From a virus, in IMG/VR virus record IMGVR_UViG_3300050821_001343, positions 1-64,000 of that record: a stretch of 64,000 bases of DNA; one strand, given 5' to 3'. Made by a program: the position numbers and the translations under genes. The notes beneath the pieces were generated by a model that did no database searches, was not told where the DNA came from, and saw nothing but the letters and a program-made list of their open reading frames with translations. Each line of letters starts with the position of its first letter. Positions within the stretch are counted from its first letter, which is position 1. Below are positions 4,322 through 53,092 of the stretch, in pieces.

Positions 4322-4416
4322 TGGCGGGTGCGGTAGGATTCGAACCCACGGAACCGGGTTCTAGCCGGTTCTCTGGTTTTCAAGACCAGCGCCTTCAACC
4401 TCTCAGCCACACACCC
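4322..4416 (-). tRNA. tRNA-Ser(TGA)
   Basis: cloverleaf; anticodon arm CTGGT-CTTGAAA-ACCAG; long variable arm; G73; encoded CCA. Confidence 0.95.
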
Positions 4417-4435
4417 GTAATAAAACCCTACTGCT

Positions 4436-4464
4436 ATACTACCACAGTAGGGTTGATTTGTCAA
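4436..4464 (-). promoter_or_regulatory. sigma70-type promoter
   Basis: TTGACA-17-TAGTAT with extended TG. Confidence 0.75.
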
Positions 4465-4478
4465 GTAAATTTTGGGGC

Positions 4479-4949
4479 TTATCTACGATTCCGTCCTGCA
4501 AATGTAGAACTCTGTGAGTGGCAATTTGGACAAAGTAACTTGAGATTTTCTTTTCTATTATCCCAAAACTTTCCGTTCTCGTGATCTGGACTCAAGACAA
4601 GAGGCTTTCCATTCCAAATTGGAAGTTGTCCGCATTGAGCACACAGTTCCGGTACACCAGATTCCAATAATGCTCTTTTTAAGAGGCGACCATGTACACG
4701 GCAGTCAGTTTCTTTCCCTAACACGAACCACTCCGATGGGGTTTTCTTTTTATTACCTCCCCTATGGCCTGTTCCGCGATTAGAACCTTTGCCTAAAAAA
4801 TGTGATGTGTCGATTCCAAATTGTTTTATTTTTCTAGTAATATGAGCATGTGACCCGCCTGCATGTTTTGCTCCAAGTAGACGTAGAACCCCGGCCACTG
4901 AAAGGCTGTCAGTAACTGCTGTTTGTAAAAATTCTTTTGTGTACTTCAC
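4479..4949 (-). CDS. HNH homing endonuclease
   Basis: CAQC..DHENG...N..ENL..LCPNCH; GTG start just downstream of tRNA-Leu. Confidence 0.85.
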   Translation of the reverse strand: MKYTKEFLQTAVTDSLSVAGVLRLLGAKHAGGSHAHITRKIKQFGIDTSHFLGKGSNRGTGHRGGNKKKTPSEWFVLGKETDCRVHGRLLKRALLESGVPELCAQCGQLPIWNGKPLVLSPDHENGKFWDNRKENLKLLCPNCHSQSSTFAGRNRR

Positions 4950-4957
4950 TTTTGCCT

Positions 4958-5043
4958 TGGTCCCCAGAAGAGGATTCGAACCTCCACGCCACAAGGACAT
5001 AAGTTTCTAAAACTTACGCGGCTACCAATTACGCCATCCGGGG
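4958..5043 (-). tRNA. tRNA-Leu(TAG)
   Basis: anticodon arm TAAGT-TTTAGAA-ACTTA; long variable arm; TTCGAAT T-loop; CCA. Confidence 0.95.
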
Positions 5044-5053
5044 ACAATATTTA

Positions 5054-5141
5054 TGGTGCGTGCAGATGGATTCGAACCACCGGAGCCCTAAAAGGCGGCA
5101 GATTTACAGTCTGCTGGTTTTAACCTCTCACCCATACACGC
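5054..5141 (-). tRNA. tRNA-Tyr(GTA)
   Basis: GCAGA-CTGTAAA-TCTGC; long variable arm; CCA. Confidence 0.95.
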
Positions 5142-5145
5142 AAAA

Positions 5146-5289
5146 CTAATCTTCGTTCAAAATGTCGATTGCATAGTCCCAACCTTCCCAGTTGTCTACG
5201 CCTGCGGCTCTTAATGCTTCTAAGAATTTCGCTTCTTTTTGAAGTGACTCGTATTCTGTCTTTGGAATTGTTACTGTTTCTTCTGACAT
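5146..5289 (-). CDS. small phage protein (LEALRAAGVDNWEGW family), 47 aa
   Basis: AGGAG RBS; translated by hand; motif widespread in phages. Confidence 0.75.
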   Translation of the reverse strand: MSEETVTIPKTEYESLQKEAKFLEALRAAGVDNWEGWDYAIDILNED

Positions 5290-5303
5290 ATGTCTCCTAG
5301 AAT

Positions 5304-5381
5304 TGGTGCCAAGGGCAGGATTTGAACCTGCGATTTCTGACTTATGAGGACAGCGAACTAGACCACTGTTCCACGCTTGGC
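5304..5381 (-). tRNA. tRNA-Met/Ile2(CAT), imperfect
   Basis: CTGTC-CTCATAA-GTCAG with one U-U mismatch; bulged acceptor stem; CCA. Confidence 0.8.
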
Positions 5382-7211: not shown

Positions 7212-7635
7212 TGGGGACACCGAAGTGCCCCCTTCTGTTTCCAAGCCTATGAATTAGGCTCAGGCGATTAAGCCAGTACAAGGTCATTGCTACGAACCAC
7301 GCCGTCTTTCGACACCGGGATTGCAGCAATCATCTTGTCATAAATGCTTGTGGCATTTACTTATTTGACTCTCGTTACGGTGAGCATCATTTCCGGCATG
7401 TCCATAACACTTTACCAATACTGTCGAATCTTGTCAGGCCCAAATTGATAGCCGGTAGGCTTTCTAGGTACAGTCTTACTCGCCTTCTCTCAGATCGGGC
7501 GCAATCACTGTACCGTGAGGCACTCCCGATAATTCCGGCTAACTTCGTACTACAAAACTTGGTGGACCTGCCGGTATATGCTAACCGGGTCCAATATCAA
7601 TGCGATGTACTTCATACATGCTTAACTTAAACGTA
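7212..7635 (-). ncRNA. ssrA: circularly permuted (two-piece) tmRNA
   Basis: acceptor piece TAAGCATGTA...GGACCCGG..CCGGCAGGTCCACCA (ends at 7560) precedes the 5' piece GGGCCTGACAAGATTCGAC (starts at 7441); G3-U70 pair; tag ORF at 7354-7268; outer boundaries approximate. Confidence 0.9.
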
Positions 7636-8735: not shown

Positions 8736-11459
8736 TCACTTCTTCCAATAGGCTGCGATGTTGTAGTCGAACTCCATGACTACACGTTTCATCTTCATTG
8801 CGGCTGCTCTCTTAAAGGCATCCCCGATCAGGTCTGCAACTTTCTGTGCGTATCTCTTCGGGCATTGTACGACCAATTCATCGTGTACGAACTTAATCAA
8901 CGTGGCACGGTACTGAGGAAGAGTGTGCCACAAGAACGGAATCCCATTCTGATCATAACCCGACCCCATTGCTTTTTTCGCAATCGTTGCATTAGTCGCC
9001 TGAATGCGGTGATTCTTTCCTTGGCGAGTAATACGGCTCGTCATCTGAAACCAACTGCGGCTAATTTCGTTTGCAGTCGGCTGTCGATGAGACAGATCAA
9101 ACATCTCAAGTTGTGTCGGCTTGCGACCCTTTATTGTGATAAACGTGTTTACGTTTTTCTCAGTGTCCTCATCTTTCAGGCGAAGGTCTTTTTCGTTCCA
9201 CTCCTTGCAGTTCTCAATCGCACGTGCTTGTGTTGGCTCAGGAAGCAAGCGGCGGCGTCCGAACAGATCAAATGCTTTGAACTTCCTTGCAGCCTCATCG
9301 CCGCTGTTTTTCAAATATGCCCAAATGCGAGGATTCTTGGCTTCGTGCAAAGCCATCAATTCTTTTGCGTGCTTGACGGTTTGTTTGATTTCCTTTGCTA
9401 GTTTGTTCGGCCCTCCACCATAGGCAAGCAGGAAGTTGGTAGACTTGTTGTTATCACGTAACTCTTTATGCTTCTCGCATTTGCATTTCTGCCGTTGTGG
9501 ATCACCAACAGTACATAGAGTATTTTTAGCAACCGATTCAGCGGTGTGAGTCTTAAAATATGCGCAATCTTCCAGAGCGTATTTCGGCCATTCAATTTCG
9601 TACAGAAGTTCAGTTCCTACTGAGTGAACGTCTTCTTTACGCCTGAATGCGTTGATCCATACGGGGTCATTAGCATCGTCCGCAATAATGCGTAACTCTG
9701 CGCCGGACATGTCAGCAGTGACTAGTACGTTTTCTTCAGCGTGCGTTGTACATTCGTTTCCACATTTCTGGCAGTAGAAGTTGAACTCACCGAATGCATT
9801 TGGCTCGTAGCTTGTATTGTCTTCACAACAGTCGCTAACTCTAACGTCTTCATTCGGAGGGTCGGCAACAAAGCAACTACGCACTTCCTTATCTTGTGGA
9901 AGATTCTGACCGTTCGGCTTCGATGAACTACTGCGACCTGTCCCGGCGTCATATTGGTTGAACTCGCAGTGAAGCCGTCCATCTCCGGGGTGCAACCATC
10001 CTTCTTCTTTGCACGGATGTGTTGTCCACGTCTGTGCCCACGCGTCTCCATAGGTGCCGATTTGTTTTGACAATCCATGATACTCTCGTATCAACTTCAT
10101 AACAGGAATTTTTTCAAACTTCTCTAGCGTCTCATCATCAAGGTTCTCAAGTTTCTCAAGCTTGGGGAAGTTCTCTTTGAGCACTTTCAACAACTGCGCG
10201 TCAGAGCCGTAGTTAATCAGAGCCTCTCCTTCGCAATCAGCGGCAAGGTTCTTGATCTTAGTACGTTTCTTTTTCAGATCACCACACTGTGCCTTGAGAA
10301 TGTCCTTCTGTGCTTTACGTGCTTGTTCCCATTGGCTAAGTTTGATTTCCAATTCGGCAATGTCAATATCGCTTATTTCGTTAAGATTTTTCTTTCTGTC
10401 GCGCTTCATCTGTGACAGTTGTGCTTTCATCTTAACTTCTTCGTCAGTCGGTGTAGACCCCAGTGCCTTCCATTCAGCTTCAAGCTTGGTGATGATATTC
10501 TCGTCAATTGCTTCCAACTTCGATCCCACAATTGGTAGGAAAATCACATCTAGGTATTGAAGATTGAGTTTGTACTTGTCTTTCGACTTTTGCACACGTT
10601 CTAGCCACTTCTCTGTAGCAATACGCTCTCCGTGAAGATGCATGTCCACAAAACTACCAATGGCTTCGTTCTCGATTTCGATAATTTCGTGGAGGTTGTC
10701 TCCAAGAATTATGCTGTCTAGGTAGTAAAGGTAGTCTGCAAGTTTTGGCTTTCCATGGGCTTTCAACGATGCTGGAGTCTCACCGCTAGCAATCACAGAC
10801 TGGAGAAGCTTGATCCCAATTGGTGTCCTCGTATCTAGTGCGGCGTATTCATACTGCGCATCGGAAATTTCATCATCAAGGTTGAACGACATTTGCAGCG
10901 TTTTGTCAATAGTTTTTCCGAAGTAACGCTCCATGAGTGATTCCATGGAGTAAAAGTCGTAGTTCTTCAACGAGGCGTGTCCACCGAGTCCAGCGTAGAT
11001 ACACTTCTCGGCCATCATGCAGTCGTACCATCCGTACGCACGAATACCCAACAGCCAATATAGGCACTCATACTCGAAGGCTAGGTTTACACCAACTTTT
11101 ATCCATTTGTCAGAAACTAAATACTTAGCTAACTTATTCAGTAGGTTTTGCAATCCCGGTGCCAGATGCAAGTTCGCACCGTAGTTCCCTTGACAGTTAT
11201 ACAATGTTTCGCCGCTACGGTCACACAATGCTCTTAAATCAATTACATACTGCTCGGTGTTGTTACCGAACTGCATGGTTCTTACCCTACGCCAAAAGTA
11301 ATCTTTGGTGGGTGTTGTTTCGCTGTCGAATCCAAATTCAGGTGTACGCTCAAGGAAGTCAATCAGCTTCTCAAACGAGTCGTTATCCACAACTCTTGTG
11401 ATATTAGGAGGAGGATTGAGAACGAGCGGCGTTAGTTCACGTTCCGCTATAATTGGCAT
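8736..11459 (-). CDS. polA: family A DNA polymerase with 3'-5' exonuclease
   Basis: Exo motifs DSET and YAALD; TGRSSS..PNGQNLP; motif A DMSGAELR, motif B K.TNF..AYG, motif C HDEL. Confidence 0.95.
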   Translation of the reverse strand: MPIIAERELTPLVLNPPPNITRVVDNDSFEKLIDFLERTPEFGFDSETTPTKDYFWRRVRTMQFGNNTEQYVIDLRALCDRSGETLYNCQGNYGANLHLAPGLQNLLNKLAKYLVSDKWIKVGVNLAFEYECLYWLLGIRAYGWYDCMMAEKCIYAGLGGHASLKNYDFYSMESLMERYFGKTIDKTLQMSFNLDDEISDAQYEYAALDTRTPIGIKLLQSVIASGETPASLKAHGKPKLADYLYYLDSIILGDNLHEIIEIENEAIGSFVDMHLHGERIATEKWLERVQKSKDKYKLNLQYLDVIFLPIVGSKLEAIDENIITKLEAEWKALGSTPTDEEVKMKAQLSQMKRDRKKNLNEISDIDIAELEIKLSQWEQARKAQKDILKAQCGDLKKKRTKIKNLAADCEGEALINYGSDAQLLKVLKENFPKLEKLENLDDETLEKFEKIPVMKLIREYHGLSKQIGTYGDAWAQTWTTHPCKEEGWLHPGDGRLHCEFNQYDAGTGRSSSSKPNGQNLPQDKEVRSCFVADPPNEDVRVSDCCEDNTSYEPNAFGEFNFYCQKCGNECTTHAEENVLVTADMSGAELRIIADDANDPVWINAFRRKEDVHSVGTELLYEIEWPKYALEDCAYFKTHTAESVAKNTLCTVGDPQRQKCKCEKHKELRDNNKSTNFLLAYGGGPNKLAKEIKQTVKHAKELMALHEAKNPRIWAYLKNSGDEAARKFKAFDLFGRRRLLPEPTQARAIENCKEWNEKDLRLKDEDTEKNVNTFITIKGRKPTQLEMFDLSHRQPTANEISRSWFQMTSRITRQGKNHRIQATNATIAKKAMGSGYDQNGIPFLWHTLPQYRATLIKFVHDELVVQCPKRYAQKVADLIGDAFKRAAAMKMKRVVMEFDYNIAAYWKK

Positions 11460-11466
11460 TCTTCTC

Positions 11467-11495
11467 ATATTACCACAAATCGTCTAAATTGTCAA
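11467..11495 (-). promoter_or_regulatory. sigma70-type promoter of the polymerase (leaderless)
   Basis: TTGACA-17-TAATAT, extended TG, ATG 7 nt downstream. Confidence 0.75.
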
Positions 11496-11518
11496 GTAAA
11501 GTTTTTTTGCGAAAAGAC

Positions 11519-11547
11519 TTGACAAATCCCCCGAAGTGTGATATACT
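11519..11547 (+). promoter_or_regulatory. divergent sigma70-type promoter
   Basis: TTGACA-17-TATACT, extended TG. Confidence 0.8.
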
Positions 11548-11576
11548 TGGTTTAATGTCAAAGTGTGAGGAGACAC

Positions 11577-12002
11577 ATGTCTGAGTACGTTCTACATTTC
11601 GATGGAAGCTGTGGTCCGACAAATCCGGGGCCGTTCGCTGGTTACGGGTATGTCATCTCTAAAGATGGCTTCATTAAGGAAAATGAATCAGGTCCATTGG
11701 TCGGGCAGACATTCAGCAACAATTATGCTGAATTCTATGCCCTATTCAAAGGACTCGACTACCTATTGACAATTCTCCAACCCTCTGACAAGTTGTTCAT
11801 TCGCGGCGATTCCGCCTTGGTTATCAACATCATGCGCGGTAAGTGGCGTCCGAAAGACTCCGGTATCTATTTTCCAGCCTATCTACTGGCAAGTAATGCG
11901 CTAACCTGCATTCGGCGGGATCGCGTTCATGTGTCGATAGACTGGGTTCCCCGAGAAATGAATACACAAGCAGATGCATTATCAACATCGTACCGCACGT
12001 AG
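11577..12002 (+). CDS. rnhA: ribonuclease HI-family protein
   Basis: FDGSC..NPG, NNYAEF, GDS..VI and WVPRE.N..AD catalytic DEDD set. Confidence 0.92.
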   Translation: MSEYVLHFDGSCGPTNPGPFAGYGYVISKDGFIKENESGPLVGQTFSNNYAEFYALFKGLDYLLTILQPSDKLFIRGDSALVINIMRGKWRPKDSGIYFPAYLLASNALTCIRRDRVHVSIDWVPREMNTQADALSTSYRT

Positions 12003-12016
12003 CTTCGTGGCACAGC

Positions 12017-12519
12017 GAATTAACGGGCCACTTGATATGAAAAACGGAGTGACTATCTCCGGTAAACATGCGTAATCGTGTTTATTTTCATGTACATGGC
12101 ATTACAACTTTCAACTATGAGGACTTGGCGCTCTGAGCAATCAGGCGTTCTCCGAATTGCTTAAAACCAGACAACTATACGGGACTCCCGGCGACGGGTA
12201 AACGGTTGAAAAGACATGCTTTGCAATAAAACCTAACTAAGTAGGTTGGAATTCTGCTATCGGGTAGGGGCCATAAGCACGCCTGAAGGGAAAAGATTAC
12301 AACCCTTCACTATTTTGAATGAAAAGCCAACAGCGATCTTTGGTAACAATGTGAGTTTGATACCTTACATTGATTTAGAGCCAATGTCTTAGCTAAATGT
12401 TCACTTTATCTTTAGCGATGATATGTTCAAAATAAGCAGTATTATCCAAGACTAGTACAATATCCTACCATGACCAATTGGTGAGTTAACTAGTCGTTCT
12501 TAGCGTTAGTCGTTAATTT
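12017..12519 (+). ncRNA. putative large structured ncRNA
   Basis: no convincing ORF; more than 10 nested helices with G-U pairs and a GCGA tetraloop; terminal helix GAATTAACGG/TCGTTAATTT. Confidence 0.6.
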
Positions 12520-12564
12520 TCATAATAACTTGCCGGGATATTACCCGGTAGGAAGGGGAGAATT

Positions 12565-13002
12565 GTGCCTAGAAACTGGAAAAGACGGAATAAAGTATCT
12601 GAAAAAGGTTTTGTAGTAGCTAAAAAGTTCCAAAACGTCCATAAGGAGCATAGATTGACCTTTTTGGTGTCATGTCTTAGACTGGATAGCCCCGATTTGC
12701 AGTTGAAGGGCCACTTGCGGAGGCGAGGGTTCAACGGTAGTAAAGGATGGTCGCTTCCTCTAACTGATAAGAGTGAGTGTTATCTGTGTAAAGGTAAAGC
12801 AACCCTGAGACACCATGTGATTCCGCTCGTTAAGGGAGGTCGAAACAAACTCAATAACATCGTTCCCCTCTGCCAACCATGCCATTGTCGGGTACATCCA
12901 CACATGCAGAAAGGATATAAACGTCCTGAACGATCCGTTCATCGACAGGTCTTAGGTAAACCATTGCAAACAATAGTTGTAATTCCTCCAAAATCGGTTT
13001 AG
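12565..13002 (+). CDS. HNH endonuclease
   Basis: CYLC..HHVIP...GG.N...N...LCQPCH; GGGGAG RBS and GTG start. Confidence 0.85.
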   Translation: MPRNWKRRNKVSEKGFVVAKKFQNVHKEHRLTFLVSCLRLDSPDLQLKGHLRRRGFNGSKGWSLPLTDKSECYLCKGKATLRHHVIPLVKGGRNKLNNIVPLCQPCHCRVHPHMQKGYKRPERSVHRQVLGKPLQTIVVIPPKSV

Positions 13003-13309
13003 TGAAAAACTATTTTTCATAAAAATATCTCCTTTCTACTCAACAACTTAATATACAGGAACCTATGAAAAGGGCTATAAACCCCTTGACAGGTGTGATA
13101 TAATAGGATTATACAATAGAAAGAAAGACGAAACACTATCCAGATCACTCTGGATCATGCTCTGGACCCAGAGTAATGGGCACAAGAACAGGGCGGGGGC
13201 CTCCTCCAGCCGCACTTCGGTGCGGTTCCTCCGTCCTCGATTTTAACCTCAATGGAGAGACGGGGCTAGTTTTCCTCTATGGACTAGCCCTTTCGTTTTT
13301 GGAGTCAAC

Positions 13310-13585
13310 ATGCCCGCAGTCGGAAATTCAGTTGCCTTTCAAGTTGCCATTGCATCAACAGGTGTTCCACAGCAACTTCCAGCAAATGCTTTACAGAACG
13401 GTGGAACTCTGGCTGCTAAGACCGGCAACACGGCAGCAGTTTCGATTAGCCCGAATCCAGCCGTTACTGCTACTACTGGCTTTTTGCTAGGAGCAGGACA
13501 ACAGGCTCCGTTCACTGGTAGTAATACGAACCAACTTTGGGTCGTTGGCACCGCAGCAGATGTAATTTCGTTTTTGGGTAATTAA
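13310..13585 (+). CDS. small beta-rich putative virion protein
   Basis: GGAG RBS; Ala/Gly/Thr-rich. Confidence 0.65.
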   Translation: MPAVGNSVAFQVAIASTGVPQQLPANALQNGGTLAAKTGNTAAVSISPNPAVTATTGFLLGAGQQAPFTGSNTNQLWVVGTAADVISFLGN

Positions 13586-15830: not shown

Positions 15831-15905
15831 TGGCAGATCGTATAACGGTAGTATGGGACACTGTTAATGTCTAAGGCGCTGGTTCGAATCCAGCTTTGCC
15901 AGCCA
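15831..15905 (+). tRNA. tRNA-Asn(GTT)
   Basis: GGACA-CTGTTAA-TGTCT; G73; CCA. Confidence 0.92.
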
Positions 15906-50439: not shown

Positions 50440-50515
50440 GGGCCAGTAGCTCAATTGGGAGAGCAATCCCCTTGCACGGGATAGGTTGCAGGTTCGATGC
50501 CTGTCAGGTCCACCA
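50440..50515 (+). tRNA. tRNA-Ala(TGC)
   Basis: ATCCC-CTTGCAC-GGGAT; G3-U70; CCA. Confidence 0.93.
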
Positions 50516-50523
50516 AAAGTTTT

Positions 50524-50600
50524 GCCCTGTTAGCTCAGTTGGTCAGAGCATAACTTTTACAAAGTTGGGGTCGGAGGTTCGAATCCTTCACGGGGCACCA
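50524..50600 (+). tRNA. tRNA-Val(TAC)
   Basis: TAACT-TTTACAA-AGTTG; CCA. Confidence 0.92.
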
Positions 50601-50609
50601 AGAGGTTGT

Positions 50610-50714
50610 ATGCATCATAAACACCATGTCGAGGATGTAGCTTGGGACATTTTCATAGGACCGTTCTACTTCACTTGGGGAATCCTGAGATGGATTTTTG
50701 AGAACTGGGATTAA
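50610..50714 (+). CDS. very small hydrophobic peptide
   Basis: GAGGT RBS; MHHKHHVEDVAWDIFIGPFYFTWGILRWIFENWD. Confidence 0.4.
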   Translation: MHHKHHVEDVAWDIFIGPFYFTWGILRWIFENWD

Positions 50715-50727
50715 CTGAAAGGGGCAT

Positions 50728-50904
50728 ATGGACGCAGCACGCGAGGAAGCACGGGCAGCACGAATTGAGCAGCGCCGAATCCTTGGGGACTACTACCGGG
50801 AGCTATCGGTCAACTATTTGGACTATGAGGTTCTAGCAAAAACCATTGGGCCAACTCTGGCATTTCCAGCGCGTCCAAATATTCCAGAATACGAGAACGC
50901 TTAA
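50728..50904 (+). CDS. small hypothetical protein (58 aa)
   Basis: AAGGGG RBS; translated by hand, MDAAREEARAAR... Confidence 0.5.
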   Translation: MDAAREEARAARIEQRRILGDYYRELSVNYLDYEVLAKTIGPTLAFPARPNIPEYENA

Positions 50905-50911
50905 GGAAAAT

Positions 50912-51094
50912 ATGCGATCTACAACTTATTGTCGTAAACTAGAAGATGGAAGTGGCTTTGTCATTGTAAGAACCATTTTCAAGAGGTATAAGAATTTTAA
51001 TACTCCTTCCTATATCGACCAGCAATGGGAAGAAGCTTTAGCGACGGGTACGACGAAAGACGAAGCATGGTCAAATTACCGTCTAAAGGTTTGA
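50912..51094 (+). CDS. small hypothetical protein
   Basis: AAGGA RBS. Confidence 0.5.
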   Translation: MRSTTYCRKLEDGSGFVIVRTIFKRYKNFNTPSYIDQQWEEALATGTTKDEAWSNYRLKV

Positions 51095-51099
51095 ATTGT

Positions 51100-51173
51100 A
51101 TCGGGTTCGTTTAGTGGCAGGACGGCAGGCTTTGACCCTGCTCGCTGAGGTTCGATTCCTTGCCCCGGTGCCA
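51100..51173 (+). tRNA. tRNA-Gln(TTG)
   Basis: GCAGG-CTTTGAC-CCTGC; G73; CCA. Confidence 0.88.
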
Positions 51174-51186
51174 AGATTGGAGAGAA

Positions 51187-51567
51187 ATGAAGAGACTGGC
51201 AGTATTTCTTATCGTATTGGTAACAATGTGTCTGCCCGATCTTGGCGGTCATCTTAACTGGTACGCTGAAAAACAGAATGCAGGATTCATGCCAGTATGG
51301 TGCTATGATACAGGCATGAAGATGTCGGTCGATGAAGATTCACGCCATGTGGAATTAACCAAATCGAGCAAGGTCCCATATCTGTCCGATATTTTCCCCA
51401 TGTATGTGTATTCATTTGAGGATAGCAAATTCGAATTAGATGGAGTAATGAGCATAGGCGATCTACTTCTATGGAGTGGCTACGTCGGTTTCTTTTTCTC
51501 CCTGTTCTATTTGTTGGTGCTTTTGTTGGATGATTTGGTGACAGTTCTTTGCAGGTTTAGACATTGA
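51187..51567 (+). CDS. DUF5317-like membrane protein
   Basis: N.G.MPV...H...T..S...YLSDI...SIGDLL. Confidence 0.6.
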   Translation: MKRLAVFLIVLVTMCLPDLGGHLNWYAEKQNAGFMPVWCYDTGMKMSVDEDSRHVELTKSSKVPYLSDIFPMYVYSFEDSKFELDGVMSIGDLLLWSGYVGFFFSLFYLLVLLLDDLVTVLCRFRH

Positions 51568-51644
51568 GCGGGATTGTTTTGTAATGGTAGCATATCGGTC
51601 TTCCAAACCGTAAGGTATAGGTTCAAATCCGGTATCCCGCTCCA
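51568..51644 (+). tRNA. tRNA-Gly(TCC), imperfect
   Basis: GCGGGAT/ATCCCGC acceptor; U73; CTTCCAA loop; CCA. Confidence 0.8.
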
Positions 51645-51645
51645 T

Positions 51646-51722
51646 CTACCAGTGGCGAAGGGGTTTAACGCGGTCGGCTGCAACCCGTCTATTCACAGGT
51701 TCGAATCCTGTCTGGTAGTCCA
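51646..51722 (+). tRNA. tRNA-Cys(GCA)
   Basis: CTGCAAC loop; U73; CCA. Confidence 0.88.
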
Positions 51723-51735
51723 TTTGGAGGTACAC

Positions 51736-51924
51736 ATGACATACGTGGTGAAAGCACCGTCCAGCGCGGACGCAGGCAAGCAAATCCTCCTTAAGATCAC
51801 AGGCGTTGATTATTTCGAGGTAAACGCAGGAACACTTTTGTTCTACAAACGTTCTAGTAAGAATCCGGTTAAAGCATTCGGTCCGGGTGGATGGTTTTAC
51901 GTTCTTGAGAACGACAAGAAATAG
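51736..51924 (+). CDS. small hypothetical protein
   Basis: GGAGGT RBS. Confidence 0.6.
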   Translation: MTYVVKAPSSADAGKQILLKITGVDYFEVNAGTLLFYKRSSKNPVKAFGPGGWFYVLENDKK

Positions 51925-51931
51925 GAGATAC

Positions 51932-52360
51932 ATGAAGCACACAATTGAAAAACTACTTCTGACAGCAGCGTTGCTGTTCGGCTCACTCACTGTCCAAGCA
52001 CGGGCACAAGCACCAACGGTCACCCTGCCAAGCGCAACCGCTAGTCAGAGTAATCTGTCATGGACTAACTCCGCAAATTGTACGGCTGCTACCCCCTGTC
52101 TTATCAATCCGTATCGGATTGGTGGGCAATGTCCGGCGAATCTTGCAGGCACAACTGGCTGGACTCAACTACCCGCTACAGCGGCACAGGCAACTTCGGC
52201 AACGGACACAACCGTGGTAGCTGGTCAAACCTATAGCTACGTGGTTGAAGCAACATTTGTATCTGGCGGAAGTCCTAGTGGACCGTCGAATTGTGTAACT
52301 GTTTCAATCCCAAACGTACCGGGCGTCCCAACGGGCCTGAACGCGACCGTCACAAACTAG
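51932..52360 (+). CDS. secreted fibronectin type III-like protein
   Basis: signal peptide ...VQARA-Q; LSW...YR...TDTTVVAGQTYSYVVEA...S.PSN; 4 Cys. Confidence 0.8.
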   Translation: MKHTIEKLLLTAALLFGSLTVQARAQAPTVTLPSATASQSNLSWTNSANCTAATPCLINPYRIGGQCPANLAGTTGWTQLPATAAQATSATDTTVVAGQTYSYVVEATFVSGGSPSGPSNCVTVSIPNVPGVPTGLNATVTN

Positions 52361-52433
52361 TATGTAGGGAAATTTGGACCTTTGGCGGTTGGGTGAAGGT
52401 CTGCGAAAATAAGTAATCGACATGTGCCCACGC

Positions 52434-52545
52434 AAATCCTCTGTGCCGTATCCGGGTCAAGGAGTTAGTACATGAAGCGTGCCCTTCCCTCTAGTCGGGG
52501 AGAAGTTGACCTATCCGATTAGCGGCTGGCGAGATGAAGGGATTT
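52434..52545 (+). ncRNA. putative pseudoknotted RNA abutting tRNA-Thr
   Basis: AAATCCT/GGGATTT and GGGTCAA/TTGACCT helices; loop CTAGTCGG complementary to CCGATTAG. Confidence 0.45.
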
Positions 52546-52622
52546 GCCACGGTAGCTCAGTTGGTTAGAGCGGCAGTTTTGTAAACTGCGGGTCGGGAGT
52601 TCGAATCTCTCCCGTGGCTCCA
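52546..52622 (+). tRNA. tRNA-Thr(TGT)
   Basis: GCAGT-TTTGTAA-ACTGC; canonical cloverleaf; CCA. Confidence 0.95.
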
Positions 52623-52692
52623 TATTCCTACACCTTAGATGCATTCACTATTAGGTGTTTGTATGACAACGGAATGCTAAATTGGAGGCAGT

Positions 52693-53028
52693 ATGGCGAA
52701 GCAGTTATTGTTTTCTCTTACTGCCAAGGATTTTGATTTTCAATACTTCACTGTGAGTGGTCACGGAGGGTCTGGAAAAGATACATCCAACACAGGTGCA
52801 CGGTGCATTCATCGTGCGTCCGGTGCGACCGGAGAAGGCCGAGAAGAACGTAGTCAACTCAAGAACAGACAAAGCGCATTCGGTAAGTGTGTAAAATCCA
52901 AAAAGTTTCAGGCATGGCACAAATTAGAAACTATGCGTCGTCTAGGGCTACTCAAAGACATTGAGAGTCGAGTTGATGAGCAAATGAAAGACAAGAACTT
53001 AAAGATTGAATACATCACAGGAGATTAA
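52693..53028 (+). CDS. class I release-factor (RF-1 domain)-like protein with GGS variant
   Basis: SGHGGS....NTGARCIH..SG......ERSQLKNR..AF. Confidence 0.8.
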   Translation: MAKQLLFSLTAKDFDFQYFTVSGHGGSGKDTSNTGARCIHRASGATGEGREERSQLKNRQSAFGKCVKSKKFQAWHKLETMRRLGLLKDIESRVDEQMKDKNLKIEYITGD

Positions 53029-53092
53029 GCTAGAGGGAAACTGACCGGCTCCAACCCGGTACTCAGAGGTTCAAATCCTCTATCTCCTGCCA
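53019..53092 (+). tRNA. tRNA-Trp(CCA)
   Basis: AGGAGAT/ATCTCCT acceptor; ACCGG-CTCCAAC-CCGGT; G73; CCA. Confidence 0.88.

Follow-up and report, generated by a model that had tools for sequence, protein, structure and literature searches.

To our knowledge, new classes of large, intricately folded bacterial and phage RNAs are rare: OLE, GOLLD, ROOL, HEARO and raiA are known, and each has proved to be either a component of a machine or an unprecedented RNA-only assembly. Here, we describe a structured non-coding RNA (ncRNA) of ~570 nucleotides (nt) from IMG/VR virus record IMGVR_UViG_3300050821_001343, encoded at positions 11999-12569 (+) between an RNase H gene and an HNH endonuclease gene. 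The window (the whole stretch of DNA analysed, 64,000 nt) is the first 64 kb of a 99-kb viral sequence with direct terminal repeats. The RNA is probably a discrete, multi-domain molecule that belongs to an uncatalogued family carried by phages and prophages of soil Acidobacteriota, and the HNH protein is probably not its obligate partner. Acidobacteriota are an abundant, barely studied soil phylum.

The usual setting of ROOL and GOLLD is a tRNA-rich phage genome, and the phage studied here is likewise tRNA-rich and has a tmRNA. Like these two RNAs, the window RNA is encoded by a phage, spans hundreds of nucleotides and several domains, shows covariation in long-range and loop-loop pairings, lacks coding potential and has no known protein partner. 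It differs from them in giving no covariance-model match at E <= 10, in the hosts of its family (soil Acidobacteriota), in family size range (200-570 nt) and in its siting within replication/recombination modules (polA, RNase H, ERF and FEN) rather than tRNA islands. ROOL and GOLLD are RNA-only homo-oligomers held by intermolecular kissing loops, whereas the window RNA has a 6-nt complementarity (12072-12077/12295-12300) that could be intra- or intermolecular. One end of GOLLD is universally conserved and the remainder is variable (PMC12286853), and the window family also has one conserved end and a variable rest.

The locus resembles HEARO/omega RNA-IscB systems in that a structured RNA lies directly upstream of an HNH open reading frame (ORF) and overlaps its start, with an HNH core in the same McrA-like clade. 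However, there is no HEARO match, the window nuclease has 145 rather than 400-500 amino acids (aa) and no RuvC, PLMP or TID, most RNAs of the family have no nuclease, neither end of the RNA is a variable guide, and an IS200/605 context was not seen. Phage group I introns with HNH or GIY-YIG genes share with the window RNA a phage setting, a structure of several hundred nucleotides, a GNRA loop, HNH- or Endonuclease VII (EndoVII)-type genes at the edge, and polymorphism in presence/absence and position. In contrast to these introns, the window RNA interrupts no gene, matches no intron model and has ends that pair, and many of its relatives have no nuclease.

ColE1 RNA II is processed by RNase H and extended by a Pol I-family polymerase. 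The window RNA is comparable in being folded, ~550 nt long and next to RNase H and a Pol I-family polymerase at a strand-switch point. Unlike RNA II, it has a closed 5'/3' helix and covaries along its whole length, and its family also occurs beside ERF-type recombinases and, once, with polA and the RNA not separated by an RNase H gene. An antisense element like RNA I was not identified, although no systematic search for one was made. T4-like phages have free-standing homing endonucleases (the Seg and Mob proteins) and I-TevI-type translational repression. The window family is similar in that HNH or EndoVII genes lie between conserved genes, their presence and side vary, one copy (in L089; relatives are given as L followed by a number) looks truncated, and the start codon is buried in RNA structure. 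The difference is that the presumed target is an RNA gene, not a protein gene.

The gap between RNase H and HNH encodes a folded RNA

The gap is closed to translation: each of its six frames has 10-16 stop codons, and the corresponding regions of relatives are just as closed. This bears out the original prediction, made from the sequence alone, that the gap has no convincing ORF. Its + strand folds to -155 kcal/mol (z = -2.98), and none of 100 shuffled sequences was as stable, as against z = -0.73 for the - strand. The earlier assignment to the + strand therefore holds, since the fold beats shuffles on that strand only; the conserved helices also include G-U pairs. The RNA had been placed at 12017-12519, which is too short. 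It spans 11999-12569, because the conserved closing helix P0 defines both ends, and it overlaps the RNase H stop codon at its 5' end and the HNH start codon at its 3' end. The 5' strand of P0, GUAGCUUC, is kept where the RNase H stop codon is 5-7 nt upstream (L016 and L011), and also where the upstream gene is not RNase H, which places the conservation on the RNA and not on the stop codon. ARAGORN found no tRNA- or tmRNA-like element in the RNA, which has the following features.

11999-12569 (+): structured non-coding RNA, whole, ~571 nt, subfamily A; from covariation and the same ends in L016, L046 and L090
11999-12006 (+): 5' strand of the closing helix P0, GUAGCUUC; RNAalifold pairing with 12560-12568
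12007-12031 (+): P1 hairpin, GUGGC / GCCAC, with near-invariant interior ACWGCG...AAUUAACGG; from covariation
12037-12043 / 12085-12091 (+): P2 helix, enclosing P2a (12045-12061) and P2b (12064-12083)
12072-12077 (+): P2b loop, GUAAUC
12107-12116 / 12204-12213 (+): P3 long-range helix, 10 bp; 8 pairs covary among 4 sequences
12187-12198 (+): P6 GNRA hairpin; loops GCGA, GUGA, GAGA, GUGA and GUAA, always GNRA
12230-12247 (+): P7 hairpin, AACCUA / UAGGUU; 5 relatives each with a different stem sequence, all paired
12285-12308 (+): P9 hairpin; loop GAUUAC (12295-12300) complementary to the P2b loop
12309-12528 (+): variable 3' domain; alignable with L016, only loosely with L046 and L090
12529-12552 (+): last hairpin, CUUGCCGGG / CCCGGUAGG; from the swap test and alignment
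12550-12568 (+): purine tract AGGAAGGGGAGAA, then the 3' strand of P0 (12560-12568)

Compensatory changes support the fold

The four full-length subfamily A RNAs (window, L016, L046 and L090) have identical ends. RNAalifold gives 80 pairs for them, 28 of which show compensatory change, including pairs in P0 and in the loop-loop pairing. We also swapped strands between family members for nine helices (P1, P2, P2a, P2b, P3, P6, P7, P9 and the last hairpin, with strands defined by hand). The paired fraction was 0.88-1.00 within a sequence, compared with 0.39-0.77 when the 3' strand came from another member.

The most conserved part of the RNA is its 5' 45 nt, which are near-invariant across 20 sequences. 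Here, AGCUUC of the P0 5' strand is invariant, and throughout the family the 5' end GUAGCUUC is paired with the 3' end GAAG..UGUGYC. P1 has the form NNGGC...GCCNN, and its two variable pairs appear as G-C, C-G, U-A and G-U in the 20 sequences. Both sides of P1 changed in 9 cells, compared with 2.0 +/- 1.1 in shuffles (0 of 500 reached this number), and P1 pairing stood at 98% as against 19-48% with the partner slid. No conserved partner of the invariant P1 loop was found with RNAduplex, as each member gave a different, non-homologous site. Further along, P3 encloses conserved AUGAGG and CCGAAKUGC segments as well as the GNRA hairpin P6. The pairing between the P2b and P9 loops is preserved in L046 as GUAACC with GGUUAC, which amounts to one compensatory event. 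The longer and the short forms of the RNA carry a B-type junction helix (CNNRG-CAACG...ACGU-CYNNG) in seven versions, all paired, and both of its sides changed in 8 cells (2.5 +/- 1.4 in shuffles, 0 of 500). At the 3' end, the purine tract AGGAAGGGGAGAA doubles as the HNH Shine-Dalgarno sequence, and the P0 3' strand holds the HNH GUG start (12565).

Judged by compensatory change in relatives, most of the helices originally drawn were kept and three were not. Those kept are ATGAAAA/TTTTCAT, CGGAG/CTCCG, TAAACATG/CGTGTTTA, TTTCAAC/GTTGAAA, CCCG-GCGA-CGGG (always with a GNRA loop) and TGAAGGG/CCCTTCA. Two others, CAATGTGAG/CTTACATTG and TATTTTGAA/TTCAAAATA, have counterparts in L016 that were read by eye, without statistics. 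GCCA/TGGC and TGAGCAAT/ATTGCTTA are not kept in relatives. The 10-bp end-to-end helix thought to close the whole fold (12017-12026 / 12510-12519) is specific to the window and not conserved, because its 5' arm is the invariant P1 apical loop and its 3' arm has no conserved counterpart.

The RNA belongs to a phage-borne family

Collecting homologues and testing them for covariation, a check that the original prediction had called for, yielded at least 20 distinct homologues (counted after removal of duplicates) of 200-570 nt, along with the covarying helices described above. They come from soil viral contigs, metagenome contigs and two Acidobacteriota metagenome-assembled genomes (MAGs). The family signature begins at the RNase H stop codon and reads AGCTTCNNGGCACNGCG-N(2-30)-TAACGGGCC, that is, AGCTTC-NN-GGCAC-N-GCG, 2-30 nt and TAACGGGCC. 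All 22 metagenome-contig matches to this signature were true, and viral contigs and the two MAGs also matched. Protein-anchored searches showed that the polA/RNase H arrangement recurs in viral contigs. L008 and L016, which are one locus, have the same RNase H, gap and HNH order as the window, and the L016 gap aligns to the window in collinear islands with obvious compensatory changes. Some candidates were rejected: a first scan with a 17-nt pattern gave mostly chance matches, the sole extra locus from an A-specific pattern scan (L112) was a coding false positive, and so were three of five genome-collection matches.

By eye, the family falls into three groups. Subfamily A (540-575 nt) comprises the window, L016, L046, L090, the truncated L089 and L095 (5' domain). 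A second group measures 375-450 nt, and short forms of 200-270 nt occur in L031, L085, L017, L097 and L100. In the same slot after RNase H, L003 (4424-4860) and L006 (4005-4440) have a ~430-nt non-coding region that is 74% identical between them and keeps a B-type junction (CUAGG-CAACG...GCGU-CCUAG) without the P1 signature. These two loci represent a possible fourth subfamily.

By PolA, the nearest cultured relatives of this phage are the Acidobacteriota (Tunturiibacter) phages Tunturi_3 (51%) and Tunturi_4 (39%). The gene order of Tunturi_3 differs, and the P1 motif is absent from it. A 45-nt covariance model of the RNA (model R1) finds one copy in our phage, none in Tunturi_3 and only one weak match in 150 other Acidobacteriota genomes. 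Thus, the RNA is phage-borne and is not a host housekeeping RNA. No match was returned by blastn of 11500-13100 or of the 44-nt signature against 50,697 cultured-phage records.

We found no RNA match to Rfam 15 (4227 models) at E <= 10 within 11900-13400, nor at E <= 5 in eight relatives. The models singled out for comparison in the original prediction (HEARO, ROOL, GOLLD, OLE and group I/II introns) were among those scanned and none matched; raiA, RNase P, tmRNA and Acido motifs were likewise not recognisable in the Rfam scan. A literature search found no publication that describes this RNA. A 2023 survey reports 10,006 unnamed structured-RNA candidates predicted from IMG/VR (PMC10690425), and the window RNA may already be among them.

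The genes beside the RNA vary

RNase H orthologues precede the RNA in eight of the nine polA-type relatives that have an upstream flank. In L093, no RNase H gene intervenes between polA and the RNA; there, the RNA begins 141 nt from polA and has its own promoter. The L095 RNA also has its own promoter; in addition to its upstream RNase H, this locus has a second, divergent paralogue (27% identity) that lies 1117-1491 nt downstream of the motif. In the window and L016, the RNA has the HNH family on its 3' side, a position taken in L098 by a more distant HNH. In L046, L089 and L090, the HNH family is on the 5' side and stops 9-44 nt short of GGUAGC. The L089 copy (L089:1679-1825, ~190 to 44 nt upstream of the RNA) is a 60-aa remnant that matches the catalytic core and, judged from this match, looks like a decaying homing endonuclease gene. 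An EndoVII gene takes the place of HNH in L011, and L035 has nothing before the next promoter.

On unrelated phage backbones, the RNA is found just before ERF-YqaJ (L031), between ERF, which it closely follows, and a methylase and an HNH (L085), close to a FEN 5'-3' exonuclease (L100) and in a prophage with a serine recombinase (L107). Overall, 8 of 20 loci have a nuclease within ~1.2 kb of the RNA, on one side or the other and in one case as EndoVII, and ~12 of 20 have no nearby nuclease. The constant neighbour of the RNA is the early replication/recombination module, not any single protein.

Across subfamilies, a purine tract, 5-7 nt and a GUG come back at the 3' end of the RNA. The HNH start in the window and L016 is this conserved GUG or the next one, and an unrelated ORF in L103 starts there too. 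Where no long ORF starts at the 3' GUG, a mini-ORF of 5-11 codons does (e.g., L011, L093, L090 and L046, with frames read by eye), and in L011 it overlaps the EndoVII start. These mini-ORFs could be chance, remnants or translational coupling.

The HNH protein (145 aa, McrA / HNH_5 type) matches only HNH_5 and HNH in Pfam, in agreement with the earlier description of a minimal HNH without RuvC. It has only nine homologues in a library of 5.8 billion proteins. All nine conserve CxxC...HH..N..N...CxxCH, an intact HNH (beta-beta-alpha-metal) motif with Cys pairs, and the N-terminal half is basic, helical and conserved. Its similarity to IscB is limited to the ~40-residue catalytic core. An AlphaFold model (pLDDT 72.7) gave no fold match at E <= 0.001; all matches had E >= 0.03, and these weak matches include Cas8-HNH. 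Among closely related genomes, the HNH gene is polymorphic in presence/absence and in position, as expected of free-standing homing genes. On these patterns, the HNH and EndoVII genes appear to behave like free-standing homing-type nucleases at the borders of an ultra-conserved RNA gene. The HNH looks like a selfish neighbour, not an obligate partner of the RNA.

Layout and expression of the locus

Gene and promoter calls agree with the predicted RNase H, gap and HNH cassette divergent from polA. The order is polA (-), back-to-back promoters, RNase H, a gap of ~560 nt and HNH.

8736-11468 (-): polA
11467-11495 (-): sigma-70-like promoter for polA, TTGACA-17-TAATAT, TG-extended
11519-11547 (+): sigma-70-like promoter for RNase H, the RNA and HNH, TTGACA-17-TATACT, 11/12 match, TG-extended
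11565/11577-12002 (+): RNase HI-like gene; Pfam RNase_H and RVT_3, PHROG 531
12565-13002 (+): HNH endonuclease gene, 145 aa; Pfam and PHROGs HNH families

The likely RNase H start is the ATG at 11577, which is preceded by a GAGGAG Shine-Dalgarno sequence. No intrinsic terminator was predicted on the + strand upstream of 13262-13291. The cumulative GC-skew minimum lies near 12 kb; it is not independent evidence of an origin, because it falls at the same place as the switch in gene orientation.

RNA-library contigs from four soil metatranscriptomic studies, 100% identical to the window, cover 11574-12288 and also 13140-13400. Their starts at 11574 and 11610 are just downstream of the 11519 promoter, and one contig (11860-12164) runs from inside RNase H into the RNA, which hints that the two are co-transcribed. 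The lack of RNA-library contigs over 12289-13139 does not mean that the 3' half or the HNH gene is silent. Likewise, no joined flanks were found in these contigs, which is not evidence of their absence.

Alternative explanations

Several other explanations deserve consideration. One is a replication pre-primer or origin transcript; the original prediction had raised a pre-primer like ColE1 RNA II. The early transcript would fold, and its purine-rich 3' part would stay hybridised to AT-rich DNA downstream, to be trimmed by RNase H and extended by PolA. We regard this as rather unlikely, even though the RNA lies at a divergent promoter pair by polA and RNase H with a GC-skew minimum near 12 kb, sits beside ERF/YqaJ or the FEN 5'-3' exonuclease in other backbones, and keeps its 3' purine tract across the family. 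PolA-type relatives without a downstream nuclease also have a 100-200-nt AT-rich spacer before the next promoter, as such a primer would suit, but L031 and L017 run directly into the next gene without one, and no such spacer follows the RNA in members beside ERF. Furthermore, a conserved helix joins the two ends of the RNA, which points to a closed molecule and not to one whose 3' tail is hybridised to DNA, and the whole 570 nt covaries as RNA, including the GNRA and loop-loop motifs. The GC-skew minimum coincides with the gene-orientation switch, and in L093 the stretch from polA to the RNA lacks an RNase H gene. The 3' end could alternatively belong to a cis-acting translational leader, in which P0 hides the purine tract and GUG and a sensed signal gates the following gene. 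The purine tract, 5-7 nt and GUG do recur across subfamilies, HNH (window and L016) and the L103 ORF start in the GUG, and EndoVII, ERF and another HNH have their starts within ~20 nt of it. A leader is nonetheless distinctly unlikely: the downstream gene differs in almost every lineage, L035, L046 and L090 have only a 6-8-codon ORF followed by a new promoter, HNH is upstream of the RNA in L046, L089 and L090, and a pseudoknotted fold of 570 nt far exceeds known leaders.

The RNA was also proposed to be a partner or guide of the adjacent minimal HNH, that is, an OMEGA/HEARO-like ribonucleoprotein (RNP) without RuvC. This proposal is not supported, because the neighbours vary, with HNH 3' of the RNA, 5' of it, replaced or absent; ~12 of 20 loci have no nearby nuclease and one has EndoVII instead. 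The same HNH family does abut the RNA at five of six A-type loci, where the gene either overlaps the 3' end of the RNA or stops 9-44 nt ahead of its 5' end; the protein is basic and conserved in its N-terminal half, and IscB HNH domains and Cas8-HNH appear among its best PDB sequence matches and weak fold matches, respectively. Against this, there is no HEARO match, the protein is a 145-aa HNH domain only, the IscB similarity covers a ~40-residue core and equals that to McrA, all fold matches have E >= 0.03, and no variable guide-like segment is present at either end of the RNA, where conservation is in fact highest, above all in the 5' 45 nt. We consider a guide RNA very unlikely. The same low probability attaches to a bolder version, in which the subfamily A RNA would be the dominant subunit of a minimal RNA-protein nuclease, with the 145-aa HNH as sole protein and the RNA supplying target recognition; this would be an OMEGA-like effector pared down to its HNH domain. 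If this were true, the nuclease-less members would be RNA-only relatives or users of a nuclease encoded elsewhere. Lastly, it is extremely unlikely that the RNA is a mobile intron-like ribozyme, either a relic or lacking an ORF, which moves together with homing endonuclease genes. Such an element might explain the patchy distribution over unrelated phage backbones, the HNH or EndoVII genes exactly at the RNA borders, and the GNRA loop with a pseudoknot-like pairing. However, there is no group I or II match at E <= 10 and no interrupted gene, since RNase H is intact and has the same end point as its intron-less homologues; the sequence upstream varies from locus to locus, and 5'/3' terminal pairing is not an intron feature.

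A probable discrete RNA and its proposed role

We favour a discrete RNA in its own right. We show that it has a conserved, closed, multi-domain fold that is specific to the + strand, phage-borne and independent of any one neighbour gene. With at least 20 covarying homologues and no Rfam match, the suggestion of a new large phage ncRNA class is thus supported. Some observations weigh against this view. Subfamily A has 4-6 sequences, the 3' domain and the loop-loop pairing (one event) are thinly supported, and the covariation evidence rests partly on hand alignment. The RNA-library data consist of contigs at low depth that do not tell strand or ends and could include DNA. As the same HNH family adjoins five of six A-type RNAs, a functional link there is still conceivable, and IscB HNH domains, at a marginal E of ~6e-4 that equals that of McrA, are among the best PDB sequence matches of the HNH. 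The Shine-Dalgarno-like tract and GUG that recur family-wide at the 3' end also fit a cis-acting translational element.

For a discrete RNA of this kind, we propose that it would be made early, together with RNase H, from the rightward promoter at 11519. Early in infection, it would probably work in trans, either as a folded RNA or within an RNP, because it is always found among replication/recombination genes. The near-invariant P1 interior may be a binding or docking site, and the loop-loop pairing could be intermolecular, as in ROOL and GOLLD (PMC12286853). HNH and EndoVII genes would have inserted at the edges of the RNA gene without breaking it. Folding of the RNA should limit HNH translation, because the HNH GUG start lies in P0 and its Shine-Dalgarno sequence in or beside that helix.

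The family is well defined, with a sharp 5' signature, defined ends and a candidate loop-loop pairing, and its minimal (~200 nt) and ornate (~570 nt) forms are handles for experiment. Its steady siting among replication/recombination genes makes a role in phage DNA metabolism testable. It may also exemplify homing endonucleases for which an RNA gene serves as a safe harbour.

Other elements of the phage

The phage is rich in tRNA genes, with 12 in three clusters, and has a circularly permuted tmRNA (Rfam RF04321, 51.8 bits).

7321-7621 (-), 4325-5380 (-), 15831-15905 (+) and 50440-53089 (+): tmRNA and tRNA gene regions

Two early promoters of the window (11519-11547 and 13087-13105) share the extended motif TTGACA-N17-(G)TGTGATATAMT. 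The same motif is found 5' of the RNA in L093, and in L035 and L011 it lies 5' of a second element, described below.

This second conserved small RNA or leader lies downstream of the HNH gene at 13087-13300 (+). It has a promoter-like TTGACA..TGATATAAT, followed by a GC-rich stem (GGGCGG.../...CCGUCC) that displays CCUCCUCC, an anti-Shine-Dalgarno-like run, beside a UUCG hairpin. After the stem come a terminator (13262-13291) and a UUUGGAG-N-AUG start. The element had no Rfam match in the scan of 11900-13400. Its CCUCCUCC core is found downstream of the large RNA in seven relatives (L011, L035, L046, L090, L095, L103 and L098), and the RNA-library contigs at 13140-13400 fall on its region.

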